Source: a virus. Taken from it: 64,000 nt of DNA. Numbering within the stretch: position 1 is the first letter of the stretch; every line of letters starts with the position of its first letter. The DNA is taken from IMG/VR virus record IMGVR_UViG_3300038393_002515; one strand, 5' to 3'. Shown here one piece after another: positions 32,618 through 62,646 of the stretch. The notes beneath the pieces are model-generated. The model saw only the letters and a list, made by a program, of their open reading frames with translations, ran no database searches and was not told the DNA's origin. A program made the position numbers and the translations under genes.

Positions 32618-32646
32618 TTGTCACGCATCTATGTGTGCGTTAGGGT
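32618..32646 (+). promoter_or_regulatory. promoter-operator block, copy 1 (variant)
   Basis: TTGTCA-N17-TAGGGT. The spacer ACGCATCTATGTGTGCGT is a degenerate form of the 18-bp palindrome. Confidence 0.55.
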
Positions 32647-32687
32647 GGGGGTGTTCCGTTGGCCGCCACAACCGGAGGAGGCGCCCC

Positions 32688-33227
32688 ATGCCCGCCGAAC
32701 GCACGTCGCGCGCAGGAGAGCGCCGTCCCAGCCAGGAGATCGAAGCCGACCCCTTCAGCGTCGACATGTCCGAGATCCCTATGACCCCGGCCATGGTCGC
32801 CCTCCACGAGGCCGCGAAACTGCGCTACCTCGTACGCAAGGCCGAGCAGCTCCTGGACGACATGGTCATCGACGGCTCTCAGCTCACGGTCGCCGAAGGC
32901 CAGCTGATGCAGTTCATCATGCGAGCCCAGGGCAGGCCCTTCACCTGGCGCTCCCAGCTGAAGAAGCTCTTCGAACGCAGGCGCGGCATCAACCTCAGCG
33001 CCCGCACCTGGCGCCAACGCGCCGCTGGCACCATCGGCCTGGGAGAATCCGAGGAGGTCCCTGGCTACATGAACACCGAAACCCTCGCCGCGCTGCGCGA
33101 GCACATCGAGCCCCTCGCCGAACTGGTCGAGAACGCCGAGGCGCTGCGCAAGGAGCAGTTCCCGGCCCTCCAGCGGCGCACCAAGGCCGCCATCGAGGGC
33201 CCGGCCGTCGAGACCGAAGCCGTCTGA
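32688..33227 (+). CDS. hypothetical protein
   Basis: First ORF after block copy 1; GGAGGAG SD. Confidence 0.55.
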   Translation: MPAERTSRAGERRPSQEIEADPFSVDMSEIPMTPAMVALHEAAKLRYLVRKAEQLLDDMVIDGSQLTVAEGQLMQFIMRAQGRPFTWRSQLKKLFERRRGINLSARTWRQRAAGTIGLGESEEVPGYMNTETLAALREHIEPLAELVENAEALRKEQFPALQRRTKAAIEGPAVETEAV

Positions 33228-33331
33228 ACGAGGCAGCGCCCCCGACAAGGTCCCTGTCCGGACCCCAACGGAGGCGCTGCAACGACACGACCATCACCCA
33301 TTTTCCCGCCTAGGAAGAAGCGACGAGGACC

Positions 33332-34324
33332 ATGTCTGCCCCCCAGAGTACCGTCACCAACGCCGTGGTGTCCCACAGCACCACCACCTGGAAGACCAGA
33401 GCCACCCAGGCCGACTGGGACAAGATCATCACGGACGGGATGATCTACCTCCTCGCCGTCGGCGGCTTCTACCTCGGCTACCAGACCCTCTACGACCTCG
33501 CCACCACCGTCGGCTACACCCCCCACCAGGCCTTCGTCGCCGCCGCCCTCGCCGACATCGCGATCCTCGCCTACTCCCGCAAGGCCGTCGCCGAGATCAA
33601 GGCAGGCCGCTCCGCCTGGGGCATCCGCCTCATCGTCGCCGCCTTCTCCCTGGCCACCTTCGGCCTCCAGCTGCGCGCCGCCTGGCCCCACCCCACCGCC
33701 GTCGGCTTCCACGGCATGGCCCCCGCCGTCTGGATCCTCGGCCACGAGATGATGCTCCGAGGCCGCCTGCGCACCGCCAAGGCCGCCCGCCGCGCCGCCC
33801 AGGTCGCCGCCGGACTGCGCCCCGCCCCCCTCCCGGCCATCCGCCTGTCGTGGTGGCTGCTGGACCCGTACCACACCTTCATCATCTGGCGCCTGGTGAA
33901 GCTCTGGGAGAAGCCCCAGGACGAGGTCATCCGTAACGAGGCCGCCAAGCGCAAGGACAAGGGCAAGAACGTCCCCCGCGCCTGGGAGGGCTACCTGCTC
34001 ACCGCCGAGACTCCCGCCGCCGAGGAGACGGCGGAGGAGCCGGAGCAGGAAGAGGAGACCGCGCCGGAGACCGGCCTGTACCGACTGTCCGACCCCACCG
34101 AGAAGGTACCGACCGAGGACTTCGACGCCTTCCTGCTCAACCTCCCCGTCGCCCCGGTCAAGGGCCGCCCCGAAGACAAGGCCATCGAGTACATCCGCGA
34201 AGTCGACAAGCTGGCCGCCAAGGCCGACATCGCCGTCACCGACAGGTTCATCGCCGGACTGCTCGGCGTCCACGCCAGCCGCGTCTGCCGCCTGCGCAAG
34301 GTGATGGCTCCGGCCAACCCCTGA
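33332..34324 (+). CDS. DUF2637-like membrane protein with C-terminal HTH-like segment
   Basis: Four N-terminal TM helices, an acidic linker and IAGLLGVHASRVCRLRK. Confidence 0.45.
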   Translation: MSAPQSTVTNAVVSHSTTTWKTRATQADWDKIITDGMIYLLAVGGFYLGYQTLYDLATTVGYTPHQAFVAAALADIAILAYSRKAVAEIKAGRSAWGIRLIVAAFSLATFGLQLRAAWPHPTAVGFHGMAPAVWILGHEMMLRGRLRTAKAARRAAQVAAGLRPAPLPAIRLSWWLLDPYHTFIIWRLVKLWEKPQDEVIRNEAAKRKDKGKNVPRAWEGYLLTAETPAAEETAEEPEQEEETAPETGLYRLSDPTEKVPTEDFDAFLLNLPVAPVKGRPEDKAIEYIREVDKLAAKADIAVTDRFIAGLLGVHASRVCRLRKVMAPANP

Positions 34325-34345
34325 TACGCCGGTAGGGTGAATGAC

Positions 34346-34387
34346 AGCAGAGCCCAGACGGGAGTGACGGTCCGTCTGGGCTCTGCT
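34346..34387. terminator. bidirectional hairpin terminator
   Basis: 16-bp stem AGCAGAGCCCAGACGG/CCGTCTGGGCTCTGCT between convergent genes. Confidence 0.65.
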
Positions 34388-34731
34388 CACAGGCTGTAGA
34401 AGGCCCGGTTCGACTCGTACAGGTCGTCCGCCACGGTGGCCAGCAGGTCGTCGCTGGAGCCCCGGTCGCACATGGTTCCCAGGTCGGCCTCGAACTGCTT
34501 GACCGTGCTCGTCGAGGGCGCCCCGTCATCGCCGTCCGCACTCTTGGCGTTAGCCAGCAGCTCCTGAGCCGCGTCCCAGCGCTCACTGTCACTCAGGTGC
34601 CCGGCCCAGTCCGAGCACGTCTGCGCCCCGTACGGCACCGAGGAGTCCTTGCCGTCGCCGGAGCTGCTCCCGCACGCGACGGCCGAGGCCGCCAGGACGA
34701 CGGCCGCCAGCAACAGGCCCGCTCTGCACAT
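34387..34731 (-). CDS. probable lipoprotein
   Basis: Signal peptide ending in AVAC followed by GSSSG. Confidence 0.6.
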   Translation of the reverse strand: MCRAGLLLAAVVLAASAVACGSSSGDGKDSSVPYGAQTCSDWAGHLSDSERWDAAQELLANAKSADGDDGAPSTSTVKQFEADLGTMCDRGSSDDLLATVADDLYESNRAFYSL

Positions 34732-34777
34732 CAGTTCCCCACCTCTCCGGCCCGGCCCTCCCCGGCCGGGCGCGGGC

Positions 34778-40414: not shown

Positions 40415-40440
40415 TAACCGCATCAACGGACATGCGGTTA
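40415..40440. repeat. 9-8-9 palindrome at the 3' end of int (candidate recombination core)
   Basis: TAACCGCAT-CAACGGAC-ATGCGGTTA, followed by an extra TGCGGTT half-site. Confidence 0.45.
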
Positions 40441-41403
40441 TGCGGTTTTTCCTTGATCGGGCGTCGCCAGGAACTTCGCCAGGTCGTACACCGGCGACTC
40501 GTCCAGGTCACCCCGGGACAGGTCGTAGCGGGTCGTGGTGCGTGGGTCGGCGTGGCCGAGGAAGCGCTGGACCTTCCGCAGCGGCACCTTGGCGTCCAGC
40601 ATCAGCGTGGCGCAGGTGTGTCGCAGGCCATGCGGGGAGATCCGTGTGACCCGGGCGGCCCGGCAGGAGCGGGAGACGATGACGGCGATGCGCCGGTTGG
40701 TCAGCCGGGCGCCGTCGGCGCACAGGATCAGCGGGTCCTCGGGCTGGCGGTGGGGCCGCATCGCGAGGTGGGCGTCGAGCGCCTTCGCCGCGTCCGGCGG
40801 CACCACGAGCGTCTGCTTCTTCGTCCGCTTGCGGGTGACCTGCAGCGTGCGGTGGCCGCGCTCGCCGTCGTAGTGCTGCACGTTGGCGCTCTCCAGCTCG
40901 GCCGAGCGCAGCCCCATGCCCAGCAGCACCTCGCAGACGGCCGAGTCCACCGCCCCGTACTCCCGGGCCATCTTGCGGAAGGCGCGGGCTTGCGCCCTGT
41001 CCAGGCCGAGCGTCTGCGACTCCTCGGAGACCTCGACGCGGTGCTTGCGCCGGTACGGCGAGCGCCGGATCTCGTACGCCTGCTCGTACTCGTCCAGGCC
41101 GAACTCGTACCAGCCGCTCATGGCGCTGAGCGCCTGGTTCACCGAGGACGGGGCGAACACCTCCTGCAGGTCGGCCGACCACTGCGCGGAGTGTTCACGG
41201 CGGGCCGCCAGCGGGGAGACCCCGTTGTCGAGCGTCCAGTCGAACCACGCCTCGATGCACCGCTTGTAGGCAGCGCGAGTGTGGGCGTTGCGGTGCTCCA
41301 GCAGCCACTGCCGCTCGATCTCCCCGCACACCCGGCGGATGTACGCCTCGTTCTCGTCCAGCTGCAGCGCGCCCGCCGGGGCGACGACCAGGTCAGTGGT
41401 CAT
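40438..41403 (-). CDS. int: tyrosine recombinase / integrase
   Basis: GLRSAEL (Arg), HGLRHTCAT (HxxR) and LGHADPRTTTRY (His/Tyr). ATG 41403 overlaps the upstream stop. Confidence 0.85.
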   Translation of the reverse strand: MTTDLVVAPAGALQLDENEAYIRRVCGEIERQWLLEHRNAHTRAAYKRCIEAWFDWTLDNGVSPLAARREHSAQWSADLQEVFAPSSVNQALSAMSGWYEFGLDEYEQAYEIRRSPYRRKHRVEVSEESQTLGLDRAQARAFRKMAREYGAVDSAVCEVLLGMGLRSAELESANVQHYDGERGHRTLQVTRKRTKKQTLVVPPDAAKALDAHLAMRPHRQPEDPLILCADGARLTNRRIAVIVSRSCRAARVTRISPHGLRHTCATLMLDAKVPLRKVQRFLGHADPRTTTRYDLSRGDLDESPVYDLAKFLATPDQGKTA

Positions 41404-41795
41404 GACGTGATCTTGCCGTACCTCTCCTCGATCTCGGCCTTGCACGGCCTGCAGGTGCTGTGCCCGTACGTCCAGGCCGTCTTGTCGAACTGGTCGCGGT
41501 CGAGCCAGCGGAAGCACGAGCCGCACAGCTCCTGGCCCTCCGTGGGCGGGCCCGAGTGCAGGCGCCAGCCGGTCTTGCGCTCCTTGCCCTGCTTGGTGGT
41601 GCCGGACTCGTGCAGGTTGCGGCGGGCGATCCAGCGGAAGCCGCCCAGGCGCTGGCCGCCGGACGGGTCCCAGACCTTGATCCTGTCGCCGTCCACGCTC
41701 CACACGACGAACGGCTTGTGGCGCGTCTCCCCCCAGAGGTAGTCCGTCTTGCACGGCACGTACGTCTGTTCCGGCAGCACCTCGAAGTCACTCAC
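41400..41795 (-). CDS. hypothetical protein
   Basis: GTG 41795 (VSDFEVLPE...) with overlaps at both ends; CGSC and CRPC pairs. Confidence 0.55.
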   Translation of the reverse strand: MSDFEVLPEQTYVPCKTDYLWGETRHKPFVVWSVDGDRIKVWDPSGGQRLGGFRWIARRNLHESGTTKQGKERKTGWRLHSGPPTEGQELCGSCFRWLDRDQFDKTAWTYGHSTCRPCKAEIEERYGKITS

Positions 41796-43049: not shown

Positions 43050-43279
43050 GGGGGAAGCGTACGGCCCTCCCGGGCGCCGTGCGGCGCCGCACCCCTCGGC
43101 ATAGTCGCGCCACCCGCGCGCCTCGAACGCAGGTTCGATAACGTGGGGCGCGGACCGAGAGGAGGTGTCCGAGCCGTCCGAGCGCAGGATCGCTCTCACA
43201 GAACTGTGTCGACGTCGAGAAGTTGAACATCGCTCACATCGCTCAACATACGTGCTGCCTGCACGAACGTTGCACCCAC

Positions 43280-43979: not shown

Positions 43980-44192
43980 TCAGACGGTCAGGCCGTCGAC
44001 GAACGCCGCCCAGGCCTCGGGCCGGAAGGCGAGAATGCGGGCGTCGGCGGAGTCCTGCTTGCTGTCGTAGACGCCGACGGCGGCCACGGCACCCGTGGTG
44101 TCCTGCTGGATTCCCTGGAAAACGCAGTTCTCGCCCGAACCGCTCTCGCTCGACTTGTGCCAGCCGGTGAACTGCTCCTTCGTGTACTGCAT
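43980..44192 (-). CDS. DUF397 (BldB-like) protein
   Basis: WHKSSESGSGENCVFQG signature. Confidence 0.8.
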   Translation of the reverse strand: MQYTKEQFTGWHKSSESGSGENCVFQGIQQDTTGAVAAVGVYDSKQDSADARILAFRPEAWAAFVDGLTV

Positions 44193-44223
44193 GGACTGCG
44201 TTCCTTTCATCGGTTTCCCCGGC

Positions 44224-45090
44224 TCACAAGCGGCTGAGGAAGTTGTGGAGGTACCGGCGGGAATCCGGTACCGACAGGGCTTGGCTCTGCAGCCTGTCAT
44301 AACGGGCACGGTACATGGAAACCTGCTCTTCGTCCTCGAAGAACGTTCCGTCTCCGTACCCCTCACGAAACGTCAACTCCACGTCAACTACGGTCAGTAG
44401 AGTGAAGGATCCAGACATCCCGGCGTGCAGGCCCGAGGCCAGAGGGAGGATCTGGATGCTGGCCCTCGTCTCTCCCAGGTTGAGCAGGTGTTGGATCTGT
44501 TCGCGATGCGCCTCGACGTCCCCCTCGGCAGGGGGCGTCAGGACCGCAGCCTCTCCTATGATCGCCCACACCTGCGGCGGGTGTTCGGTCTGCAGCAACT
44601 TCTTGCGCGTCTCACGCAGCGCCAAGTGCCCCTCGATCACCCCCGGATCCACCAGCGGCTGGCCCGGCTGGGCCAGATTGCCCCTGCGGATGGCCTCCTC
44701 GGAGGTTCGCGCCGTCTGCAGGAGGCCGGGGATGACGTACGGCTCCCAGGTACGCAGGGCGGTCGCCATGCTCTCCGCGTCGGCATAGTCGGTGTAGGTG
44801 GGCCCGAGACGGCTGGCCACACCAAGCGGAGCGCGCTCCTTGGCCCGGGTCGCCCACTCCTCCATGCGCTCGATCTGCCGGGAGTCGCTGATCCCGTAGA
44901 TACGGCAGTAGGCGCCGATCATGCCCTTCTTGACGGCCGTGTGACCGGACTCGTTCCGGTAGATCGTCGGCACAGACAGGCCGATCTTGTCGGCGACCTC
45001 CTTGGCTGTAAGTCCGGCCTCGTCACGGGCCAGCTTGAGCATGCGCCCGAGGATGCGTCTGCGGATGGTAGGCAGCGATCCGTACGCCAC
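44224..45090 (-). CDS. XRE-family HTH regulator, WhiJ/Scr1-like (DUF5753-type C-domain)
   Basis: LKLARDEAGLTAKEVADKIGLSVPTIYRNESG. GTG 45090 after GAGGGGAGGA. Confidence 0.8.
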   Translation of the reverse strand: MAYGSLPTIRRRILGRMLKLARDEAGLTAKEVADKIGLSVPTIYRNESGHTAVKKGMIGAYCRIYGISDSRQIERMEEWATRAKERAPLGVASRLGPTYTDYADAESMATALRTWEPYVIPGLLQTARTSEEAIRRGNLAQPGQPLVDPGVIEGHLALRETRKKLLQTEHPPQVWAIIGEAAVLTPPAEGDVEAHREQIQHLLNLGETRASIQILPLASGLHAGMSGSFTLLTVVDVELTFREGYGDGTFFEDEEQVSMYRARYDRLQSQALSVPDSRRYLHNFLSRL

Positions 45091-45294
45091 GAGCCTGTCC
45101 TCCCCTCGTCGGTCAGTGCGGCAAGTCTGCACCCCCGTCAGGCTCTTAGACCAGTCACCCGCATGTGCACATTCTCATTCTGAGGACTTGCAGAACGAGA
45201 GATCTTCCGCCACGGTGGGTGACAACCCGCTTGCGCCAGGTACCGCATCGGTGTGAGCAGGCCTCACCTGCCCATCCTGCAACGGGAGTTACAC

Positions 45295-45774
45295 ATGCAC
45301 TCCCAGACTCGCCAGGGTCCGCCAACCCTGGGTCTGCTTGGGAACATCCGCTACACCCGCGCCTATTCGAAGGAACTGGCGAGCGTGCCTCTCGCTCGTG
45401 CGCGGTTCCACGAGGCCGCCGACGACAGCAAGCTCGACCACGAGATCGCCGAGAAGGCCGTGCTGTGCCTGTCCGAGCTGGCCGGTAACGCCGTCAGACA
45501 CGCCCACGACCCGCGCAAGATCCGCCGGTTCCTCGTCGAGTCCACGATCCGCCCGATACGCCGCCGCTTCACCCTGGAGGTCAGCGTTTGGGACATCGAC
45601 CTCTGCCACATCCCCCCTCTGCCGGACCCCGCCACGGCCGCCGCGCGGCTCTTCTCCATGGACGAGGACGCCATGAGCGGGCGAGGGCTGCTGTTCGCCG
45701 CCTCCCTGTCCGACGGCATCGGCATCGACCGTGGCCCCCACGGCAAACGAGTCTGGTGCCGCTGGCACCTCTGA
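45295..45774 (+). CDS. HATPase-type anti-sigma-factor-like protein (AbaA-like)
   Basis: ELAGNAVRHA N-box and SGRGLLFAASLSD G-box. Confidence 0.7.
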   Translation: MHSQTRQGPPTLGLLGNIRYTRAYSKELASVPLARARFHEAADDSKLDHEIAEKAVLCLSELAGNAVRHAHDPRKIRRFLVESTIRPIRRRFTLEVSVWDIDLCHIPPLPDPATAAARLFSMDEDAMSGRGLLFAASLSDGIGIDRGPHGKRVWCRWHL

Positions 45775-45802: not shown

Positions 45803-45833
45803 TTGACGCACGCATCTATAGATGCGTTAGGGT
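45803..45833 (+). promoter_or_regulatory. promoter-operator block, copy 2
   Basis: TTGACG-N19-TAGGGT. The spacer holds a perfect 18-bp palindrome ACGCATCTATAGATGCGT (45810-45827). Confidence 0.65.
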
Positions 45834-45954
45834 GGGGGCGTTGTCGTCGGAGCTGTTTCCAACTCGCGCCATCCACCGCCATGGAGCCGCGCGTAGCGTG
45901 AACACCCGACCGAGCAAGGGCCCGCCAGCCCTTCACCGTCAGGAGTCCCCCGCC

Positions 45955-46522: not shown

Positions 46523-46553
46523 TTGACACACGCATCTATGGATGCGTTAGGGT
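46523..46553 (+). promoter_or_regulatory. promoter-operator block, copy 3
   Basis: TTGACA-N19-TAGGGT; ACGCATCTATGGATGCGT at 46530-46547. Confidence 0.65.
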
Positions 46554-46602
46554 GGGATCCGTTGAGAGCAAGGCCCGCCCTTCCCGCCACCAGGAGAACA
46601 CC

Positions 46603-48736: not shown

Positions 48737-48767
48737 TTGACACATGCATCTATGGATGCGTTAGGGT
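48737..48767 (+). promoter_or_regulatory. promoter-operator block, copy 4
   Basis: TTGACA-N19-TAGGGT; ATGCATCTATGGATGCGT at 48744-48761. Confidence 0.65.
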
Positions 48768-48798
48768 GGAGTCAAGCCCGCCAAGGAAGGTGCACACC

Positions 48799-50556: not shown

Positions 50557-50587
50557 TTGACACACGCATCTATGGATGCGTTAGGGT
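50557..50587 (+). promoter_or_regulatory. promoter-operator block, copy 5
   Basis: TTGACA-N19-TAGGGT; palindrome at 50564-50581. Confidence 0.65.
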
Positions 50588-50627
50588 GAAGCTATCGATC
50601 CCGCCAAGGAAGACGAAGGAGGGCCGC

Positions 50628-51951: not shown

Positions 51952-51980
51952 TAGACACGCATCTATGGATGCGTTAGGGT
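51952..51980 (+). promoter_or_regulatory. promoter-operator block, copy 6 (variant -35)
   Basis: TAGACA-N17-TAGGGT; palindrome at 51957-51974. The block is bracketed by a 13-bp inverted repeat. Confidence 0.6.
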
Positions 51981-52039
51981 GGGGCCATGCCTGCCGGGGA
52001 AACCCGGCAGGAACCGACACTCCCGCCTAGGAGGAACCC

Positions 52040-52645: not shown

Positions 52646-52653
52646 GCACGACG

Positions 52654-52717: not shown

Positions 52718-52755
52718 GCTCATCACCCACCCGCCACCACCACGAGGGGAACCCC

Positions 52756-53391
52756 ATGGCCGAGCGCCGCACCCGAGTCAGCAAGAGGACCGCCAACAAG
52801 GCCGCCGCCGAGGTGGCCGAACTGCTCGGCACCCTGGAGGGCTGGCAGAAGCGCAACCCCAACGTTGCCGACTACCGCGTGACCGAGGCCCTTGAGCACC
52901 TGCGCCGCGTCTCCGTCCTCGTGGGATACCTGGTCGACGACCGGGACCCCGAGGGGGACGCCGCCCGCGCCAAGCTGCGCGCGACTCGCGACGCCGAGGC
53001 GGCCCGAGGGATGGCCGACGCCGTTTGGAGCGACCTGCGAGACGGGAACGCCCACGTGGCCGACGTGTCCCCCAAGGGCGACGGTAAGACCTACACCCCG
53101 CCCACGGCCCTGCTGTTCCACTACGCCAGCCGTGACGTGCGCCTGACCCGGAGGAACGGCGCCGTGTACGCCACGATCACCGCCGGGCCGGGGACCGGCC
53201 GGGAGTGGTGGTCGAGCGCCGGAGCCGAGGAGGCCGTCAAGGCCATGGTTCGGGACCTCTACGGCGTCCACTGCGCCCACGAGTACGGCACCGGCCGCGA
53301 CTCCTGCCCCGGCTGCGACTACACCGAGGAGCAGTTCGAGGACCGCTACGCCGGGCGTCTGGGCATGATGCCCGCCAACCCGCTCGCCTGA
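52756..53391 (+). CDS. hypothetical protein
   Basis: GAGGGGAA SD precedes the ATG. Confidence 0.55.
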   Translation: MAERRTRVSKRTANKAAAEVAELLGTLEGWQKRNPNVADYRVTEALEHLRRVSVLVGYLVDDRDPEGDAARAKLRATRDAEAARGMADAVWSDLRDGNAHVADVSPKGDGKTYTPPTALLFHYASRDVRLTRRNGAVYATITAGPGTGREWWSSAGAEEAVKAMVRDLYGVHCAHEYGTGRDSCPGCDYTEEQFEDRYAGRLGMMPANPLA

Positions 53392-53398
53392 CACCACC

Positions 53399-53466
53399 GC
53401 CCCGGCCCCGCCCGCCGCCGACCGGGCGGGGCACGGTCCGAGACAGGTTCGATGCCTGTCCGGGGC
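53399..53466 (+). ncRNA. tRNA-like intercistronic element 2
   Basis: Same architecture as element 1. The T-stem ACAGG/CCTGT carries two compensatory pair changes, and the T-loop is identical. Confidence 0.4.
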
Positions 53467-53502
53467 ACTCCTGACCGTCCCGCCAGACACAAGGGGGAGA
53501 GC

Positions 53503-54240
53503 ATGACCACCGCAACGCAACCCCGCCCGTCCGTCTCCAACGTCCGCGCGCTGGCCTCCTGGCTCGCCGACAACGACCTTCCCGGCCAGCGCAGCATGAC
53601 CGCCATCACGCGCCTGCGCCGCGAGCGCTCCACCAACCTGCCGCCCGTCGCCACCACGCCGGAGCCGGTGACCGCCCGGCTCGCCCGCCGCCTGGTCGCC
53701 GAGGCCCGCCGGGAGATCCGGCGCCGGGGCGGGGAAACCGTGATCCTGGGCAAGAACGACAGCGTGAGCGGCTCCCTGGTGCTCGCCGACCGCGACCGCG
53801 CGCAGCGCATCATCCTGGTGCGCGCCGAGGGCTGGCGCTACTACTCCAGCCGCTTCGGATCGCGGCACGTCGAACTGGCCTACCTGTACGGCCGCGACGA
53901 CGCCGGACCGTGGGCCGTGCGCGTCCCCGGCAGCATCACCACGGTGCGCGAGGGGCTCGCCTGGCTGACCCCGGCCGCCGTGAAGCAGGCCCGCGCCGAG
54001 AGGCGCCGGGTGCGCCGCCAGGGCGACGTGTACGCCGTGGAGACCACCGCCCGCCGCGACGGCCGGGGCGTGGCCGACCTGCCCGAGGCCCACGAGTGGC
54101 GCGCGTCCACGCGCCACCTGGTCCACAACCCCGACGACGGCCGCAAGCACCGCCCGCTGCGCCTGCCGTACCCGGTGGAGTTCATCCCCCAGCGCGCGTA
54201 CGAGATGGGCCGCAGCGGCGCGCGCGGCGCCGCCGACTGA
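53503..54240 (+). CDS. hypothetical protein
   Basis: AAGGGGGAGAG SD precedes the ATG. Confidence 0.55.
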   Translation: MTTATQPRPSVSNVRALASWLADNDLPGQRSMTAITRLRRERSTNLPPVATTPEPVTARLARRLVAEARREIRRRGGETVILGKNDSVSGSLVLADRDRAQRIILVRAEGWRYYSSRFGSRHVELAYLYGRDDAGPWAVRVPGSITTVREGLAWLTPAAVKQARAERRRVRRQGDVYAVETTARRDGRGVADLPEAHEWRASTRHLVHNPDDGRKHRPLRLPYPVEFIPQRAYEMGRSGARGAAD

Positions 54241-54273
54241 CCACCATCCACCACCACACCCCGAGGGGGAGCC

Positions 54274-54660
54274 GTGAACATCCCGCGCATGGTGCGCAAG
54301 TACGCCCAGGATGCCCACAAGCGCTACACGACCGAGCTGGAGGCGATGCGCGAGCGCATCACGGAGCGCCCGGCAGATCTCACCGGAGACCGCTTCACCG
54401 AGTTCCACGCCGCCCGCGAGCTGTACAACCTCTACGCCAAGCCGCTTGCCCTGGACGCCGTCGGCAACAGTGCATACGACGACGCCAAGGTGTTGGACCG
54501 CATCGAGGACGCACGCCGCACCGCGCTCCGGTGGCTGCTGACCAGCAAGCCCCCCATGAGCGGCGTCATGGTCGTAGAGCAGCAGATCGCCGAGAACGAG
54601 GCGCGCCGGTTCCTCTCTCAGATGCAGGTGCTCGACATGCAGGAGGGCGAGGAGCAGTGA
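54274..54660 (+). CDS. hypothetical protein
   Basis: GAGGGGGAG SD precedes the GTG start. Confidence 0.5.
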   Translation: MNIPRMVRKYAQDAHKRYTTELEAMRERITERPADLTGDRFTEFHAARELYNLYAKPLALDAVGNSAYDDAKVLDRIEDARRTALRWLLTSKPPMSGVMVVEQQIAENEARRFLSQMQVLDMQEGEEQ

Positions 54661-55061
54661 GCAAGAGCAGCGCCGCTCTGCTGGCCGAATTGCAGACGAA
54701 GGCGACGGCCGCCGTCGCCCACCTGGAGGCCATGCGCGAACGCATGCGCCGCCAGCTGGACCAGGGTTTTTACCTGGACGAGTTCGCCGCTTATGACCTC
54801 TTGTTGGCCGAAGGCATTCATGCCCAGTACCGGGAGATCGGCATCACGGCCGACGGTACCCTGCGCCGCCACGACGGTGAGACCGACGCCGACATGATCC
54901 AGGGCGCCCGCAACATCCGCCAGGAGATCCGGCGCAGGCTGGTCGAGGTGCCCGAGAGCATTCAGGTTGGCCTCTCCGCCGTCCGCCAGCACCAGACCCG
55001 GGAGGGCATGCGCCGCTTCCTTCGGGAGACCGAGTTCCTCGCCAAGGAGGTGACCGAGTGA
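54657..55061 (+). CDS. hypothetical protein
   Basis: GTGA overlap. Confidence 0.5.
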   Translation: MSKSSAALLAELQTKATAAVAHLEAMRERMRRQLDQGFYLDEFAAYDLLLAEGIHAQYREIGITADGTLRRHDGETDADMIQGARNIRQEIRRRLVEVPESIQVGLSAVRQHQTREGMRRFLRETEFLAKEVTE

Positions 55062-55121
55062 GCCACCCGCGCCACCCCAAGAGGCCGAAGAGGCCGAGCC
55101 GCCCCCGGTAGGAGAGAGATC

Positions 55122-55358
55122 GTGAGCGAGATGCAGTGGCCCGCCCGGGGGGCGACCGTGCTGGTTCAGGACGTCATGAGCGAGGCTCTCGCGCAGATGA
55201 GGACCAGCAAGGAGCCGCCCGCCCGTAGGGGCGTGGTGGTCGAGACGCCCGCCGACGGCGGCGTTCATCTGACCATCGACACCGGCGGCGAGTACGGATG
55301 CGTGACCTACCCCGCGTTCGGCTTCGCCTCCTCGCACACCTGGAAGGGAGCCGCCTAG
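55122..55358 (+). CDS. hypothetical protein
   Basis: AGGAGAGAG SD precedes the GTG start. Confidence 0.5.
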   Translation: MSEMQWPARGATVLVQDVMSEALAQMRTSKEPPARRGVVVETPADGGVHLTIDTGGEYGCVTYPAFGFASSHTWKGAA

Positions 55359-55449: not shown

Positions 55450-55480
55450 TTGACTCATGCATCTATGGATGCGTTAGGGT
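55450..55480 (+). promoter_or_regulatory. promoter-operator block, copy 7
   Basis: TTGACT-N19-TAGGGT; palindrome at 55457-55474. Confidence 0.65.
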
Positions 55481-55524
55481 GGGACCAGTCCCGCCGGACA
55501 CCACCACCCGAAGGAGGGCCCACC

Positions 55525-57489
55525 ATGGCCACCACGCGACTCAGCGACACGATGATCACTGCGCTGCTGGACGCGCTCACCCACAGGGGGAGCGACGGCC
55601 GCTATCAGCTTCTCACCCGGGGCGCCACCCGCGCCGCGCTGGAGGCTCGCGGCAAGGTCGAGCGAGAGGACGGCCGCGACAACTACGGACGGCCGCGCAC
55701 GCACCACTACCTCACCGCCGACGCCGTCACCTACCTGCGCAACGCGCTGGAGTACACGCTGAACCAGCGCGGCGAGGACCGTGACCGGGTGTGGCAGGAG
55801 TGGCTGAACGCTGATCGCCGCCACGAGTGGGCCTTGATCGACTTCCTGGGCCTGACGGCCGACACGTACGAGATCACCACCACCACGCCCCAGGAGCGCA
55901 AGCCGCACCGCGAGACCCTCGGCCGCGCGGACGCCTGGGAGCGCATCGGCAACACCCTGCGCAACGGCCAGCGCATCACCCTGGACGACGGCGCCATGAC
56001 GGCACACACCAAGCTGGGTGCCACCTGGACGTTCACGCCGATCCGCCCGGCCGCCGAGGAGGCCCCGGCCGCGCCCGAGCCGCGCCCGGCCGCCGAGGTG
56101 CTCGCCGCCGACCCGATCCCGGCGGACACCTCGGTCCTGGAGGGCATGCCGGGCCAGCCGGTCGGCCGCGAGGGCGTGCCCACCACGGACGCGGTCACGC
56201 ACGAGGCGTACGTGGTCCAGATCCGCAACAGGGACGCGTGGCAGCTCCCCAACCACGACGACGGCGCCCACATGACGCGCGCCAGCGTGATCAGCTCGCT
56301 GGCGTGGGCGCGCCAGGCCGCCCCGGGCCACACGCGGGCCTCGGTCGACACGGACGGCACGGTGTACGTGTCCACGGGCCGCCAGGCCGCCCGCTACATC
56401 CCCGCCTCGCTGCTCGCCGACTACTCCGCCGACACCTGCCCCGGCTGCGGCACCGCGTACGCCACGAACGGCGACGGCCCGTGTGACGGCTGGGCCGCCC
56501 TGCCCTCCCTGCCGGTCGCCGAGGAGGCCGACCCCGAGGCCAAGCCGTGCGAGGGCTGCGGCGCCCCTGCGGGTGAGCCGTGCGAGCCCATGAGCATGTG
56601 CGAGGCCGCCCGCGAGGAGGCCGTGTCGGCGCGGCTCGCCGAGGAGGACGGGGAGCGCGGCATGGTCTACGGGCCGCACCGCATCACCAACACCGGCGAC
56701 GACATCGAACACACGGCCCAGGACGGCGGCAAGTACGGCATCCGTGCGTTCGAATGCACCCGGTGCCACAAGCGCGCCATCCTTGCTGACTTCGAGTACG
56801 GCCGCGTGGAGTGCACCGAGGAGGCCGAGGCCGAGTGGGCCCGCGAGCGCGCTGAGGGGCTGCTCAACGACCACTTCTTCAAGGGCGCCACCGCGTATGA
56901 GGTGGACGTGCCCACCGACGACAAGGGCGGGAGCGTCACCTACACCCACGACCGGGAGACGGCCGCGCGGTTCGTCGCTGCCCTGCTCGGCCTGGGGGCG
57001 ACTCACGGATGGTTCCGTGATGGTCTGCGCCTGACGCACGACGGCAGTGTGAACAAGGTGCGGCCCGTTGTTGCGCGGGTGCAGGAGGACGAGGAGGCCG
57101 AGCCCCTCGACGAGATGGGCACTGATGCCCTCCTGGAGGTGCTGCGCGAGCACGCGGGCGAGCTCCCCGCCGACAGCACGTTCGCCAAGGCGTGGGCGCT
57201 CATGGACCGCATCTTGACCGACGGCGGCATCGAGTGCCTTCCCGCGCCGTGGGACGGCTACGCCGACCAGGCGGAGCCCATCGACCTGCAGGCGCTTCCG
57301 CCCCGCGCCAAGTACGTGACGGTGGGTGAGCTGCAGGTGGGTGACGTGTTCGTGACGCGCTGCGCGTGGATCGTGCGCGCCATCGACGGCGGCACGTTCA
57401 CCGCTGAGCGGTGGGACGGTGAGCAGACGGTGACTCAGACCGTGCCGGAGAGCACGAAGGTTCTGCGGACGCGCCGCGCCCAGGGCTGA
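55525..57489 (+). CDS. hypothetical protein (654 aa ORFan)
   Basis: AAGGAGG SD after block 7. Confidence 0.6.
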   Translation: MATTRLSDTMITALLDALTHRGSDGRYQLLTRGATRAALEARGKVEREDGRDNYGRPRTHHYLTADAVTYLRNALEYTLNQRGEDRDRVWQEWLNADRRHEWALIDFLGLTADTYEITTTTPQERKPHRETLGRADAWERIGNTLRNGQRITLDDGAMTAHTKLGATWTFTPIRPAAEEAPAAPEPRPAAEVLAADPIPADTSVLEGMPGQPVGREGVPTTDAVTHEAYVVQIRNRDAWQLPNHDDGAHMTRASVISSLAWARQAAPGHTRASVDTDGTVYVSTGRQAARYIPASLLADYSADTCPGCGTAYATNGDGPCDGWAALPSLPVAEEADPEAKPCEGCGAPAGEPCEPMSMCEAAREEAVSARLAEEDGERGMVYGPHRITNTGDDIEHTAQDGGKYGIRAFECTRCHKRAILADFEYGRVECTEEAEAEWARERAEGLLNDHFFKGATAYEVDVPTDDKGGSVTYTHDRETAARFVAALLGLGATHGWFRDGLRLTHDGSVNKVRPVVARVQEDEEAEPLDEMGTDALLEVLREHAGELPADSTFAKAWALMDRILTDGGIECLPAPWDGYADQAEPIDLQALPPRAKYVTVGELQVGDVFVTRCAWIVRAIDGGTFTAERWDGEQTVTQTVPESTKVLRTRRAQG

Positions 57490-57565: not shown

Positions 57566-57596
57566 TTGACTCATGCATCTATGGATGCGTTAGGGT
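57566..57596 (+). promoter_or_regulatory. promoter-operator block, copy 8
   Basis: TTGACT-N19-TAGGGT; palindrome at 57573-57590. About 75 nt is nearly identical to copy 7. Confidence 0.65.
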
Positions 57597-57637
57597 GGGC
57601 CAGTCCCGCCGGACACCACCACCCGAAGGAGCACCAC

Positions 57638-59056
57638 ATGACCACGAAGCTGAAGATCACCAAGACGATGGGCGAGCACCTGGTGCGCGCGCTCGCCAAC
57701 GGCAACCGCGAGGTCGTCGGCGCCCGCACCAACACCGAGCGCGCCATGATCGGTCACGGACTCGTGCGTCACCAGGAGCTGAAGACGCGCGTCACGGACT
57801 CGCATGGTCACCTGGTCCGCTCGCACGGCCTGGTGCTCACCGAGCAGGGTGAGGCCGAGGCCAAGCGCCTGACGGGGCCGACGACCACCGAGGAGCGCGC
57901 GGCGGCCGTCACCCGCGAGGACGTGGCCGAGGGTGTGCGGCTGGCGCTGAACTACCTCGGGTTCGGCGAGCGCCGCCGGGAGGCCGAGCAGGCCCCCGCC
58001 TCCGAGGTGCTGGAGGGTGAGTTCCAGCGGATTCGCCGCGTGATGCGCCGCGCCATGAAGCACAACGGCGCCGAGGCCGCACACCAGGCGCTCAAGCAGT
58101 ACAACCACACCGAGGCGCTGCTGATCGCGGCGCGCCGGTTCGAGGCGGAGGACGCGGCCCAGGAGGCCGCCCAGGAGGGGAGCAAGGTGGAGGAGCAGCA
58201 GGAGCAGGGGGCACCGGTGACCGAGCAGCCCGCCGACCGCATGGCGTGCGGGTGCACGCTGGAGGAGGTCGCCAACAAGCACCGGTCCGGCTGCGGCTTC
58301 AACCGCCGCCCCGGCTACAACCCGTGGGCGCCGTACATGAGCCGCAACAGCGGCCCGTACCGGGACCCGCGCCCGGCGCTGGCCATCTGCTCGGTGCACG
58401 AGGGTGAGCACATGGGTTCGGCTGAGTGCCGTTACCCCTACATTCCGGCGCGCGCCGCCGTCAATGAGCCCGCTGAATTCCGGGGGCTCACCCGCGCCGA
58501 CGTCGCCGAGGAGGCCGCGCGGGCGCTGGAGACGCTGAGCGCCGAGGACCGGGCCACGGTCGAGGGACACGCGCCGTCCGTGATTCTGGGCATGGCGTTC
58601 CGCCGGGCGCAGACGGCCTACTGCGCCGACCGCCGCGAGCGCACCGCCGAGGAGGAGGCCGCTTACGATCGTTGCGCCAACATCGCGAGCGCCGCCCTGA
58701 TCTTCGAGCGGGCCGACGACCCCGAGGCCGCCGCCGCCGCGCGGGCCGATGACTTCCGCATCACGAGCGCCGAGCGCGCCGAGGAGGCCAAGCGCCGCGA
58801 GGAGGCGCACGCGCGGGTGATGGCGGCCCAGTGGCGCGGCGCGCAGCGTCACGGTAAGTACCTGGTGCGCACCGAGGAGGTTGGTCACGGCCTGGTGCGG
58901 GTGTGGGTCCGGGGCCCGGCCACGGAGATCGAGAGCATCGAGCGCGCGTCGGTCGCGTACGCCCGGGGCAACGGTCTGCGCCCGGGAGCGTCCGCCGGGG
59001 GCGGGGAGTTCTTCGAGGGCGACTACATCGCCCAGCGCGCCTACCACCGCGCCTGA
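57638..59056 (+). CDS. hypothetical protein (ORFan)
   Basis: AAGGAG SD after block 8. Confidence 0.6.
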   Translation: MTTKLKITKTMGEHLVRALANGNREVVGARTNTERAMIGHGLVRHQELKTRVTDSHGHLVRSHGLVLTEQGEAEAKRLTGPTTTEERAAAVTREDVAEGVRLALNYLGFGERRREAEQAPASEVLEGEFQRIRRVMRRAMKHNGAEAAHQALKQYNHTEALLIAARRFEAEDAAQEAAQEGSKVEEQQEQGAPVTEQPADRMACGCTLEEVANKHRSGCGFNRRPGYNPWAPYMSRNSGPYRDPRPALAICSVHEGEHMGSAECRYPYIPARAAVNEPAEFRGLTRADVAEEAARALETLSAEDRATVEGHAPSVILGMAFRRAQTAYCADRRERTAEEEAAYDRCANIASAALIFERADDPEAAAAARADDFRITSAERAEEAKRREEAHARVMAAQWRGAQRHGKYLVRTEEVGHGLVRVWVRGPATEIESIERASVAYARGNGLRPGASAGGGEFFEGDYIAQRAYHRA

Positions 59057-59652: not shown

Positions 59653-59683
59653 TTGACCCATGCATCTATGGATGCGTTAGGGT
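59653..59683 (+). promoter_or_regulatory. promoter-operator block, copy 9
   Basis: TTGACC-N19-TAGGGT; palindrome at 59660-59677. Confidence 0.65.
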
Positions 59684-59716
59684 GAGGCTCCCGCCGTACA
59701 GTGAGGAGCATTGATC

Positions 59717-61096
59717 ATGAGCATCATTCGTTGCACCGACCCGCACGCCGCCGCCGACCAGGGCTACAGCCCCAACAGCTCCGGCCTGGGCGCGGCCTGG
59801 GAGGCGCACCAGGAGGCCGCGCACGAGGAGACGTTCAAGGGCGCGGTGCTGCGCCTGAGGGAGCGCAACGGCTACGACGACAGTGACTTCTACGCCCTGG
59901 TGTGGGACGAGGAGCAGCAGGCGACGCGGGAGATCATGTACGCGACCACGCGCGGGTGGACGTACCACAACGGCGCCGACATCGACGCGACCCGTGAGGT
60001 GATCGGCAAGGCCATCGCATGGGAGACGGAGCAGCGTTTCAAGGAGGCGCAGCGCCGCTACCAGGAGACGCCGCGCAAGGGCTGCACGGCGCGCGCCACG
60101 GAGCGGGGGCAGGTCGTCGAGGGCGTCATCGCGTGGGTGGGTGAGGACAAGCCGCGCTCGCAGTGGGCGGCCCGCTACGGCACCCGTACCGCTCGCTACG
60201 GCATCCGCGTCGAGGGGCGCAGGGGCCTGGTGTTCCGTAACGCCGACGCGGCCGACTTCGAGTTCGACGTGCCCCCGGTGAGCGAGGAGGATGCGGCGGA
60301 GTGGCGGGCCACGTGCGCCCACAACGCGCGGGCCGAGTTCTCCCAGGCGCTGGCGCTGGCCGACAAGCGCGAGCCGCTGCCGGGCCCGGGTGACGTGGTG
60401 GACGCCCAGGAGGCGGACGCGGACGGGTGGCGGCTGTACGCCATCGGCGAGAGCTTCTGCGATGACGAGTGGGCGCAGCGGGTGGCGGTGGCCGTGGTCG
60501 ACGAGGCGGCCGAGTACCGGGTGACGGGGGTGCGCGCCGACGGGCGGCCCATGGCGGTGCGGGAGGCCACGGCGTTCCAGGCGCTGCGGCACGTGTCGCG
60601 GTGGGCGGACGTGGACGGCACGCGGATCATGCACGACGGTGCGGGGGCGGTGCTCATGGTCCGTGAGGACGGCGGGCGGCTGGTGCTGCGGCCGGTGCGC
60701 GCCGGGGAGGGGCCGCAGGAGGGTGTGAGCGGGCCCGTGGGGGCCGAGGAGCAGCGGGAGGGCCAGGAGGGCGCCGACGGCGTCCAGGGGGCCCAGGAGG
60801 ACGTGACGGGGGCCGAGGGTGACCCGGCGTGGGTGGCGCGCCGTGATGTGGCGTGGCGGGCGCTGGGGGACGTGTTGGACGGGGGTGCGGCGCGGTACCG
60901 GCGGGCGGTGCTGGTCGAGGGTTCGGAGGCGCGGGGGGTGTCGGACACGATGCCGACGGAGGCGGCGCGGGTGTACCTGGCGGGGGAGCTGGCCGACGGG
61001 GGCGAGCTGTCCAAGTCGGGCATGGGGGTGCGGCTGGTGTTGACGCGGGCGAACGGGGCGCGGCTGGAGCTGTACCCGGTGCGGGGCGTGGCGTAG
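59717..61096 (+). CDS. hypothetical protein (ORFan, G-rich 3' half)
   Basis: GAGGAG SD after block 9. Confidence 0.6.
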   Translation: MSIIRCTDPHAAADQGYSPNSSGLGAAWEAHQEAAHEETFKGAVLRLRERNGYDDSDFYALVWDEEQQATREIMYATTRGWTYHNGADIDATREVIGKAIAWETEQRFKEAQRRYQETPRKGCTARATERGQVVEGVIAWVGEDKPRSQWAARYGTRTARYGIRVEGRRGLVFRNADAADFEFDVPPVSEEDAAEWRATCAHNARAEFSQALALADKREPLPGPGDVVDAQEADADGWRLYAIGESFCDDEWAQRVAVAVVDEAAEYRVTGVRADGRPMAVREATAFQALRHVSRWADVDGTRIMHDGAGAVLMVREDGGRLVLRPVRAGEGPQEGVSGPVGAEEQREGQEGADGVQGAQEDVTGAEGDPAWVARRDVAWRALGDVLDGGAARYRRAVLVEGSEARGVSDTMPTEAARVYLAGELADGGELSKSGMGVRLVLTRANGARLELYPVRGVA

Positions 61097-61191
61097 TTGC
61101 GGATTCCGTGGTGTCCGCCGGTGGGCCGACCGTGCGTTTTCGTTGCGGCGGCCCCTGGTGGGTGCGGATTTCGTTGTTTTGCTGCGCCCTC

Positions 61192-61221
61192 TCCCTCATG
61201 CATCTATGGATGCGTTAGGGT
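61192..61221 (+). promoter_or_regulatory. promoter-operator block, copy 10 (degenerate -35)
   Basis: The -35 position reads TCCCTC. Palindrome at 61198-61215 and TAGGGT at 61216-61221. Confidence 0.55.
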
Positions 61222-61253
61222 GGACTCCCCGCCAGACACTGAGGAGCATGATC

Positions 61254-62546
61254 ATGAACGCCACCACCGTCGAGACCGTCACGCTGATCTTCGAGATGAC
61301 CCCGTGCGGGCGCTGCGGAGGCACCGGCCAGCACCTGTACAACCAGCGTGACGGCCGCGTGTGCTGGGGCTGCTCCGGCGCCGGTGAGCACCTCTCCCCC
61401 CGGGGCAAGCGCGCCGCCGAGGCCCTCGATGTGGCGATGCGCGAGTCGGCGGGCACCGTGGCCGTCGCCGACATCACGCCCGGCATGCGCATCAAGTGCC
61501 CGGCGCACGGCGGCCTCGACGGCCAGGCGCGCCCCTGGAACTACAAGCCCGCATGGCGCACCGTGGCCTCCGTCGAGATCACCGAGTACACCGGGCGCGG
61601 CCAGGAGGGCGGGTACATCATCGACGTGCCGTGCGTGCGCGCCTCGCTCGTCTTCGAGGACGGCAAGACCTGGACGGCGGAGTCTTCCGACCACCCCGCC
61701 TACTGGGCCAAGGGCGCGTTCCGCACGACCTACAGCGAGCGCTCGTTCTGGCTCGGCGGCGAGGAGGCCCGCGCCGCCCGCATGGAGGTGCGCCGCGCCA
61801 TCGCCCGCCGGTTCGTCGGCGCCTGGCTGGAGGGCGAGGAGCCCCCGGCGCGCCCCGAGCGCAAGCCCCGCACCCCCAAGCCCGCCCAGGAGGCCCCCGC
61901 GCCCAAGCCGCTCGCCTCCAACAGGTTCGCCGGTGACTGCCGCAAGTGCGGCACCCGGGTGGAGGCGGAGCAGGGCGAGCGCGAGCGCGTGGACGGCCGC
62001 TGGGAGGTCCAGCACAAGGCCGGTGAGTGCCAGGAGCGCCCGGCCGCCGAGGAGGCCCAGGAGGCGCCCCAGGGGGCCGCCGCTCCCGCCCAGGAGCGCC
62101 CGGCTCGCCCCGCCATGGTGAACAAGTTCCCCGGCAAGTGCGCGCGCTGCGGTGTGCGGGTGCTGGCCGAGCAGGGCGAGCGGGTGCGCGTGGACGGCGA
62201 GTGGATCACCCGGCACCGTGAGGGCGAGTGCCCCGCCAGCACCACGACCATGATCACCGAGGAGGGCATGTACGCCCGCGAGGGGGAGGTGTACCGGGTC
62301 CGTCGCTCCGAGAGCGGCAACCTCTACGCCGAGCGTCTCACCCCGCCCGCCCACGCGGACGGCGGCGCCACGTTCACGTACGACCCGGCCGCCGTGTACG
62401 CCCTCACCCCCGCCGACCGCATGACGGTGGAGGCGGCCGCCGAGGTGGGCCGACGGCTTCACGCGTGCTGCGTGTGCGGGCAGCGCCTCACCGACCCGGC
62501 GAGCGTGAAGCGGGGGATCGGCCCGGTGTGCCGCAAGCGGGTGTAG
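61254..62546 (+). CDS. multi-zinc-ribbon protein with DUF6011-like C-terminus
   Basis: CGRCGGTG..CWGCSGAG; two repeats of C..CG.RV.AEQGER.RVDG.W..H..GEC; CCVCGQRLTDPASVKRGIGPVC. Confidence 0.6.
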   Translation: MNATTVETVTLIFEMTPCGRCGGTGQHLYNQRDGRVCWGCSGAGEHLSPRGKRAAEALDVAMRESAGTVAVADITPGMRIKCPAHGGLDGQARPWNYKPAWRTVASVEITEYTGRGQEGGYIIDVPCVRASLVFEDGKTWTAESSDHPAYWAKGAFRTTYSERSFWLGGEEARAARMEVRRAIARRFVGAWLEGEEPPARPERKPRTPKPAQEAPAPKPLASNRFAGDCRKCGTRVEAEQGERERVDGRWEVQHKAGECQERPAAEEAQEAPQGAAAPAQERPARPAMVNKFPGKCARCGVRVLAEQGERVRVDGEWITRHREGECPASTTTMITEEGMYAREGEVYRVRRSESGNLYAERLTPPAHADGGATFTYDPAAVYALTPADRMTVEAAAEVGRRLHACCVCGQRLTDPASVKRGIGPVCRKRV

Positions 62547-62556
62547 CAGGGCGCGC

Positions 62557-62595
62557 CACGGGGGCCGGGTGGACCGCCACTGCCCGGCCCCCGTG
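62557..62595 (+). terminator. hairpin terminator
   Basis: 13-bp stem CACGGGGGCCGGG/CCCGGCCCCCGTG. Confidence 0.6.
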
Positions 62596-62615
62596 GGCGA
62601 GTTTCCGCAACCCGC

Positions 62616-62646
62616 TTGACCCACGCATCTATGGATGCGTTAGGGT
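62616..62646 (+). promoter_or_regulatory. promoter-operator block, copy 11
   Basis: TTGACC-N19-TAGGGT; palindrome at 62623-62640. Confidence 0.65.

Follow-up and report, generated by a model that had tools for sequence, protein, structure and literature searches.

A palindromic operator inside HrdB-type promoters probably joins at least 13 units of a large actinophage under one phage-encoded regulator

In the Streptomyces phage phiC31, the repressor c binds conserved inverted repeats (CIRs) that lie beside conserved early promoters, and in lambdoid phages the sites of the dimeric helix-turn-helix (HTH) proteins cI and Cro, about 17-18 bp long, overlap the core promoter in two or three operator clusters. 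MerR-family promoters have near-consensus hexamers 19 nucleotides (nt) apart, with a dyad in the spacer. In Cluster A mycobacteriophages the stoperators, which can number about 30 in a genome, are asymmetric, 13 bp long and mostly outside promoters, and they block elongation (PMC6550527). Here we analyse a repeated block, made of a promoter and a palindromic operator, in a 64,000-nt stretch of virus DNA (IMG/VR record IMGVR_UViG_3300038393_002515; the whole of this stretch is referred to as the window).

An original prediction, made from the letters of the window, had placed 11 copies of this block between genes on the + strand, and all 11 were found at their positions, in that orientation and intergenic (Table 1). 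The exact core GCATC-N4-GATGC is present in 10 of the 11 copies; in shuffled versions of the window it occurs 0.07 times on average and at most once. A scan with a position-weight matrix, a check proposed together with the prediction, scored the 29-nt core at 46.7-53.9 bits at the 11 sites, far above the best of 20 shuffles (13.9 bits). The series extends past the right end of the window by 7-10 kb, with a variant copy that has a 17-nt spacer (contig L092, 14216) and a symmetric double -10 element (L092, 11684-11703), which brings the phage to at least 13 sites; the 10 kb to the left of the window hold no copy of the block. A simple consensus scan returned no promoters, since TAGGGT fails the TATAAT rule, and picked up only one hairpin. 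Scans of the window and the first loci for Rfam families and tRNAs gave no matches.

The operator consists of two 7-bp inverted arms, ACGCATC and GATGCGT, around an N4 centre, with the arm centres 11 bp (one helical turn) apart. A 23-mer (GCATCTATGGATGCGTTAGGGTG), which includes the non-palindromic centre TATG, is common to nine copies, and the perfect palindrome claimed for copy 2 is borne out by its sequence. A TTGACN hexamer stands at 19 nt in 8 of the 11 copies, and TAGACA or TTGTCA at 17 nt in two (copies 6 and 1), as had been described; the description fails for copy 10, which has no -35. The left flank of this copy lacks TTGAC and carries instead a degenerate inverted TGAGGGAG, that is, a degenerate inverted -10 region (CCCTCTCCCTCA). 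A G-rich discriminator lies 3' of the -10 TAGGGT. The open reading frames flanking every copy are supported by third-position GC content, and the distance from the end of the TAGGGT hexamer to a start codon with a Shine-Dalgarno sequence is 31-121 nt in every copy, where 25-120 nt had been predicted. Hairpins precede seven of the 11 copies: strong GC ones at copies 5, 7, 8, 10 and 11 (-33 to -59 kcal/mol), and others at copies 4 and 9. Copies 1, 2, 3 and 6 begin only 26-30 nt past the upstream stop codon, without a comparable hairpin. The figure of ten separately terminated units was therefore overstated.

The pattern TANNNT is that of actinobacterial vegetative promoters, and comparison with relatives supported the predicted identity of the blocks as host vegetative (HrdB-type) promoters. 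In seven related contigs, the ortholog of copy 1 retains its -35 (TTGCAA, TTGTCA or TTGCAG), a 17-nt spacing, a -10 (TAGAGT, TACGGT, TAGGGT or TAAGGT), a GGGGG run and a conserved leader, and the sequence of the spacer has changed. Fourteen further sites in two relatives have TACGGT, TAGGGT, TACCGT, TAGAGT or TAGTGT as -10. Across lineages T1, A2 and T6 of the -10 are thus invariant, with variation only at positions 3-5, and the -35 and a GGGG discriminator are conserved. Two spacing classes are found in every lineage, TTGACN with 19 nt and TAGACA with 17 nt; the second, to which copy 6 belongs, recurs in L092, in the close relative L001, and in L144 (IMGVR_UViG_3300046506_000327) and L145 (IMGVR_UViG_3300018933_000004). 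Orthologs of copies 2 and 3 were also found in relatives, that of copy 2 in L145, L144 and L140 (2917802685_000001), with arms specific to each lineage. It is this combination, a -10 that varies only at its degenerate positions, a conserved -35, a spacer of 17 or 19 nt and a G-rich discriminator, that points to a HrdB-type promoter.

Comparison of the operators separated the lineages into two types. The window, L001 and L092 have ACGCATC-N4-GATGCGT (type A). L145 keeps the arms, (A/G)CGCATC...GATGCG(C/T), at seven sites with four different centres (TCGA, TCAA, TTGA and TTTG). Every site of L144 and L140, including the orthologs of copies 2 and 3, which were recognised by their leaders, has GCAAC-N4-GTTGC (type B), so that the T-to-A change from type A in one arm is mirrored by A-to-T in the other. 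Types are not mixed within one genome (type A/type B: window 10/0, L145 4/0, L144 0/5), and they differ between phages whose RecA is 91-95% and whose large terminase (TerL) is 91% identical to that of the window. The conserved arms, the free centre, the 11 bp between arm centres and the paired arm changes support the binding of a dimeric, sequence-specific, phage-encoded HTH protein. The original proposal of one dimeric DNA-binding protein gains support in particular from arms that change together by lineage and from the mutual exclusion of the two types.

Some sites are symmetric. At L092 11684-11703 (about window +69.2 kb), at about 7389 in L001 and at 61198-61222 in the window, the arrangement is CCCCACCCTA-operator-TAGGGTGGGG, with outward-facing TAGGGTGGGG on both sides. 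It is kept in two phages, and would imply a second, antisense-directed promoter.

We consider it probable that a phage HTH protein, acting as a dimer on the shared operator, controls the at least 13 HrdB-type promoter units, likely by repression. A phage-encoded protein of this kind, bound between -35 and -10, would most likely exclude RNA polymerase, and the rightward arm, with its at least 13 units that each have their own promoter, would be held under one switch, acting in lysogeny, in episomal carriage or as an early-gene shut-off. The binder would be the protein encoded at 11291-11944 or the WhiJ-like protein encoded at 44224-45132, and the switch may be linked to a SOS-controlled gene in the adjacent module. 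Repression appears a good deal likelier than activation, because promoters with near-consensus hexamers, some of them at the optimal 17-nt spacing, should fire unaided, and because a protein sitting between the hexamers should block RNA polymerase. The context is that of a temperate phage: besides an integrase there are a conserved LexA box and, at the divergence point, an XRE regulator.

Three HTH proteins (11291-11944, 17760-18149 and 44224-45132), all named as candidates in the original prediction, were compared across lineages. The sigma-70 region-4-like protein 17760-18149 was rejected as the binder, since its HTH is invariant across lineages with different operators. The other two both vary with operator type in three or four lineages, and either of them may be the binder. 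The tandem-HTH protein 11291-11944 is 64% identical overall to that of a same-type relative, with 83% identity in the second HTH and an identical recognition helix (SSSKTIMRLE); against a type-B lineage, identity is 74% overall and 53% in the second HTH, where the recognition helix is STSKSILRIE. This discordance matches the operator type, but with the gene placed in the replication module, the variation could instead follow an origin of replication. Two contigs from one sample (3300047470), L162 and L169 (3300047470_000462 and 3300047470_000480), are co-occurring natural recombinants with the first HTH of one type and the second HTH of the other; they could resolve which of the two domains tracks the operator.

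The WhiJ-like gene stands at the boundary of the minus-strand integrase block and the rightward arm, the usual place of the repressor in a temperate phage. Its recognition helix also differs by type (SVPTIYRNE and SVPAIYRHE versus S[RQ]PVVYRQE), with no excess conservation. The cluster of genes for XRE-DUF5753, DUF397 and HATPase_c_2 proteins to which it belongs is conserved in relatives and in a short contig, L103. The intergenic region between the WhiJ-like and AbaA-like genes (45133-45294) contains lineage-specific short palindromes, GAGAATTCTC twice in L140 and L141 and once in L139, and GAAGATCTC in the window, L137 and L138. In L137-L141, too, they stand 5' of the WhiJ-like gene, whose product may use them as local sites. 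Searches against solved structures with both candidates returned nothing informative. The protein encoded at 42185-42673 was also considered and rejected, since the relatives in which the system is kept lack a homolog of it.

The same cassette is found outside this phage family. An exact-motif scan of 185,579 representative species genomes gave five matches, all of them in Streptomyces and all beside genes of integrative elements (FtsK-like TraSA, DUF2637, GntR, Nudix). The 28-30 nt core is identical in these five genomes down to the central TATG, and the flanks are unrelated. A 46-kb plasmid has a near-identical core upstream of a gene for 88 amino acids and of an HTH_31 gene, and a motif scan of metagenomes gave one relevant contig with the identical core, L103 (3 kb), syntenic with the WhiJ/DUF397/AbaA cassette of the window. 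At L002 3054-3087 and L005 6540-6572 the cassette lies 12 nt past an AbaA-like HATPase_c_2 gene, reads antisense into it, and precedes a divergent GntR gene by about 65 nt. In another integrative element (L003, 3821-3900; L004, reverse strand), it is followed 12 nt on by TTGTCAGTG-N8-TATGGC, and lies about 270 nt upstream of a gene for a membrane protein of 85 amino acids; TTGTCAGTG-N8-TATGGC matches the PafBC-dependent RecA-NDp promoter motif. That the centre is identical across elements, although free to vary in L145, argues for cassette transfer rather than convergence. Within the phages, the genes after the conserved copy 3 promoter (46603-47381) have no homolog in relatives that keep this promoter; they are replaced in L134 and L135. 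Since downstream genes differ after conserved promoters, and the same 30-bp cassette is carried by Streptomyces integrative elements and plasmids, the cassettes are probably also recombination points, a second role beside regulation.

Several observations weigh against control by a phage HTH repressor. The covariation is supported by only three or four independent lineages, and shared ancestry could produce it. The TATG centre, and 23 nt in total, are identical in nine copies, which is more than a binding site needs; this identity within the window phage suggests concerted evolution. The operator is absent upstream of both candidate genes. The WhiJ-like proteins found beside the same operator on plasmid L105 and on the integrative element L003 have unrelated recognition helices, which weakens the case for a WhiJ-like protein as the common binder on all these mobile elements. 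Finally, copy 10 and L092 11684-11703 lack any -35, and the 19-nt spacer with a centred 7-4-7 dyad, seen in 8 of the 11 copies, is also the architecture of activator-dependent MerR-type promoters. A dimer bound in such an over-long spacer, or replacing a missing -35, might realign or recruit RNA polymerase in the manner of MerR, and the arm would then be a middle-gene set. Sites with a poor or absent -35, namely the symmetric double -10 elements and the integrative-element copies, would fit such a mechanism. So would WhiJ9, an activator of transcription and the one protein studied so far from one of the candidate families, whose binding sites are direct repeats in its own intergenic region (PMC10294661). 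We nevertheless regard activation as unlikely. The over-long spacer is not invariable, being 17 nt in copies 1 and 6, L092 14216, three sites of L001 and sites of L144 and L145, and 17-nt copies with five of six matches in the -35 (TAGACA, TTGTCA, TTGCAA), which should need no remodelling of the DNA, carry the same operator in every lineage. In addition, the dyad is about 2 bp nearer to the -10 than in MerR and SoxR promoters, and a scan with Pfam of about 50 proteins of the window, with some 90 kb of the genome lying outside it, found no MerR-family domain.

A conserved host transcription factor that binds the palindrome and is exploited by Streptomyces mobile elements would account for the occurrence of one identical 28-30 nt core in a phage, in plasmids and in the integrative elements of five Streptomyces species, with no detectable regulator gene common to them, and in the adjacent module a host LexA box does stand in the equivalent place next to a -10. 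Since the operator type switches between close phages, in which the types are mutually exclusive, and the exact motif is present in only five of the 185,579 genomes, always in mobile-element contexts, a host factor is distinctly unlikely as a general answer. The block might instead be mainly a mobile promoter/terminator cassette of the PeSL kind found in T4-type phages, its copies kept identical by recombination and gene conversion and not by a bound regulator. Consistent with this are the 23-mer shared by nine copies with its non-palindromic centre included, the hairpin preceding 7 of the 11 copies, the replaced genes after copy 3, and the same 30 nt among unrelated flanks on integrative elements and plasmids. 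Recombination alone leaves unexplained why the arms form a palindrome, why both change jointly between lineages, and why those of L145 are kept while the centre drifts; moreover, contigs of the same population are 99.97-100% identical with no cassette indels (which makes them uninformative for cassette mobility). As the sole explanation, we hold it to be very unlikely. Recognition by an alternative sigma factor, either SigB/SigF-like (GCATC-N15-GGGTGG) with the AbaA-like protein as an anti-sigma-type partner or one encoded by the phage, is most improbable: in the window, L103 and L002/L005 an AbaA-like HATPase_c_2 gene does adjoin the block, and there is a loose resemblance to GNNTN-N14-16-GGGTAY, but the TAGAGT, TACCGT and TAGTGT of relatives break GGGT and keep TANNNT, TTGACN/TTGCAA is conserved at the -35, and the only sigma-region-4-like protein of the window does not vary with operator type. 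The paired arm changes, which keep complementarity, could also be stem covariation in a hairpin of RNA or single-stranded DNA serving processing, attenuation or replication. We find this hardly credible, as all copies within a genome keep the same arm sequence and not merely pairing, the repeat lies 5' of the predicted start in a fixed register between -35 and -10, most copies follow strong terminator-like hairpins, and no Rfam family matches.

Table 1. Promoter-operator blocks and other features of the window, with positions counted from its first nucleotide.
Feature	Position	Strand	GCATC core start	Description
Copy 1	32618..32647	+	32625	-35 TTGTCA, 17 nt, degenerate palindrome ACGCATC-TATG-TGTGCGT, -10 TAGGGT; drives 32688-33227 and DUF2637 gene 33332-34324
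Copy 2	45803..45834	+	45812	TTGACG, 19 nt, perfect 18-bp palindrome ACGCATCTATAGATGCGT, TAGGGT; begins 27 nt past AbaA-like gene
Copy 3	46523..46554	+	46532	TTGACA, 19 nt, ACGCATC-TATG-GATGCGT, TAGGGT; drives 46603-48658 (five genes)
Copy 4	48737..48768	+	48746	TTGACA, 19 nt, operator, TAGGGT; drives 48799-50502
Copy 5	50557..50588	+	50566	TTGACA, 19 nt, operator, TAGGGT; 12-bp GC hairpin 50512-50541 upstream; drives 50628-51920
Copy 6	51952..51981	+	51959	TAGACA, 17 nt, operator, TAGGGT; drives 52040-55358 (about six genes)
Copy 7	55450..55481	+	55459	TTGACT, 19 nt, operator, TAGGGT; -57 kcal/mol hairpin upstream; drives 55525-57489
Copy 8	57566..57597	+	57575	TTGACT, 19 nt, operator, TAGGGT; hairpin upstream; drives 57638-59056
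Copy 9	59653..59684	+	59662	TTGACC, 19 nt, operator, TAGGGT; drives 59717-61096
Copy 10	61198..61222	+	61200	Operator and TAGGGT, no -35; drives 61254-62546
Copy 11	62616..62647	+	62625	TTGACC, 19 nt, operator, TAGGGT; drives 62678 onward (483-amino-acid product, runs off window)
Candidate regulator 1	11291..11944	+		217 amino acids, two XRE-type HTH (Pfam HTH_31/HTH_3/HTH_25); between DNA polymerase III alpha and RecA
Tyrosine integrase	40438..41754	-		Pfam Phage_integrase, E=6e-22; marks lysogeny-type module
LexA (SOS) box	43123..43144	+		Perfect actinobacterial box TCGAACGCAGGTTCGA with abutting -10-like TAACGT; 5' of small open reading frame and Rv1352-like gene 43425-43895
DUF397 (BldB-like) partner	43980..44201	-		Pfam DUF397, E=3.8e-12; downstream of WhiJ-like gene
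Candidate regulator 2	44224..45132	-		WhiJ-like XRE, HTH_31 + DUF5753 (Pfam), PHROG 9908
AbaA-like HATPase_c_2 (anti-sigma-like)	45295..45774	+		Pfam; divergent from WhiJ-like gene, directly 5' of copy 2; kept in relatives

The LexA box of the adjacent module (Table 1) matches the actinobacterial consensus, TCGAAC-N4-GTTCGA, and its geometry relative to the -10 is that of the operator blocks. Together with about 60 nt downstream, it is conserved at the nucleotide level in L134, L135 and L103, and it suggests a possible SOS-controlled input to the switch. A direct repeat, CCCCTTGATGGGGTA, flanks the Rv1352-like gene of this module (43280-43294 and 43902-43916). A second conserved element situated 5' of start codons, CCCGCC(A/G)...CC(A/C)GGAGC, was observed at 45.9-64 kb of the window and at 5-15 kb of L092 (for example L092 6573-6659, 6978-7065 and 7426-7523), and recalls the start-associated sequences of Cluster K mycobacteriophages. 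CCCGCC lies within 60 nt of 12 of 14 starts in the right arm and of 10 of 10 in L092, versus 6 of 27 in the left arm. Some intergenic regions with a hairpin but no promoter block contain it as well. In the leaders, it was rejected as part of the block and proved to be a separate element associated with starts.

The window is part of an actinophage of about 152-155 kb; sequence identical to it lies on metagenome contigs of the Joint Genome Institute (JGI) that are 152-155 kb long and have differing end points. Its GC content is 69%. Relatives in IMG/VR form a family of about 154-157 kb, with TerL 52-94% identical to that of the window, and several come from isolate-genome assemblies. A megablast search with 44 kb of the window against GenBank phages gave no match, and the polymerase shares about 31% identity with its counterparts in Rhodococcus phage E3 and Gordonia phage Pupper; on these grounds, the phage belongs to an undescribed group of large actinophages. 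The block motif, likewise, was not found in GenBank phages, and a search for relatives through the ORFan 48799-50502 found none. Four of the relatives, L123, L127, L130 and L149 (IMG/VR UViGs 2917802685, 2862465376, 2818991472 and 2758568729), are whole contigs of 150-157 kb in isolate-genome assemblies, which suggests that cultured strains carry them as episomes or are persistently infected. Short-read contigs of the window phage in Logan (L108-L111 and L113) begin and end inside promoter blocks; the repeat breaks assemblies, and such arms will be fragmented in many metagenomes.

The left part of the + strand encodes a DnaC-like loader, DnaB, a primase-like protein, DNA polymerase III alpha, the tandem-HTH protein and RecA, and further right the large terminase and polyvalent proteins with ADP-ribosyltransferase and LigT domains. 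The region 3' of the terminase (25129-31760) encodes two very large proteins, one of 1295 amino acids with a weak GNAT match and one of 915 amino acids with ART-PolyVal and LigT/2H phosphoesterase domains, of the polyvalent-protein type. A minus-strand block at 34.4-45.1 kb contains the tyrosine integrase and the WhiJ-like XRE/DUF397 pair. The rightward arm starts at 45.3 kb with the AbaA-like gene and continues with mostly ORFan genes. As originally described, its products are almost entirely uncharacterisable: the cargo of the operator-controlled units is ORFan except for one DUF262/NsnA-like domain. This is found in a protein of 181 amino acids (48113-48658) that matches only the N-terminal DUF262/GmrSD_N domain (PADLOC NsnA, E=1.6e-15) and is kept in relatives. 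The driven proteins have no similarity to one another; gene duplication was thus rejected as the source of the repeated blocks.

It is also conceivable, though in our estimate quite unlikely, that the phage's switch for lysis/lysogeny or carriage was built from a Streptomyces developmental-type cassette (WhiJ-like XRE, BldB-like DUF397 and AbaA-like proteins) with a LexA-controlled trigger, and that the elements with the identical cassette read the phage regulator. In that case a resident prophage would silence one gene of these integrative and plasmid elements, or an infection would fire it; the arrangement would be a phage sensor or a form of cross-talk among the mobile elements.

For an uncultivated family of Streptomyces-type phages of about 155 kb, these results provide a regulon map with at least 13 promoters, two operator specificities and two candidate regulators. 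The natural swap of specificity, one base per half-site, reduces identification of the regulator to a simple binding experiment, and the system might yield orthogonal, tightly controlled promoter/repressor pairs for Streptomyces engineering. The presence of the same 30-bp cassette on phages, integrative elements and plasmids suggests movement of regulatory cassettes, or cross-talk, between mobile elements.

The likeness to phiC31 CIRs and to stoperators that had been pointed out originally holds as an analogy and not as membership. As in phiC31, many copies of one inverted repeat lie at conserved early promoters of a Streptomyces phage, presumably for one phage repressor; unlike in phiC31, whose repeat is not known to be related in sequence, the repeat here fills the -35/-10 spacer of a vegetative-consensus promoter, the genome is about four times larger, and no homolog of the phiC31 repressor was identified. 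The operators and stoperators of Cluster A are similarly numerous per genome and oriented with transcription, and their consensus is lineage-specific, tracking in that case the cognate repressor, as in heteroimmunity (PMC6550527); the sites described here are in contrast symmetric 7-4-7 palindromes, and every one of them is inside a promoter. The PeSL cassettes of T4-type phages also combine a terminator hairpin with a conserved early-type promoter between ORFans of a plastic region, and the genes downstream differ between relatives (PMC2839356, PMC4122927), but PeSLs have no operator palindrome and are defined by element-bounded indels between close relatives. Lambdoid phages share with this system operators that overlap the promoter, specificity variants between related phages and an XRE-type gene at the divergence point beside the integrase; they differ in having two or three operator clusters rather than at least 13 single sites, and here the divergent WhiJ-like/AbaA-like region has no operator and the candidate repressor carries DUF5753 instead of an S24 peptidase domain. 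MerR promoters share the near-consensus hexamers, the 19-nt spacing and the dyad in the spacer, but here there are also 17-nt copies, the dyad is offset toward the -10 and no MerR gene was found among the window proteins scanned. The kind of system is thus already known, from phiC31, Cluster A mycobacteriophages and lambdoid phages; this is a new case of it, in an undescribed group of phages, and the sharing of its cassette across mobile elements is unusual.

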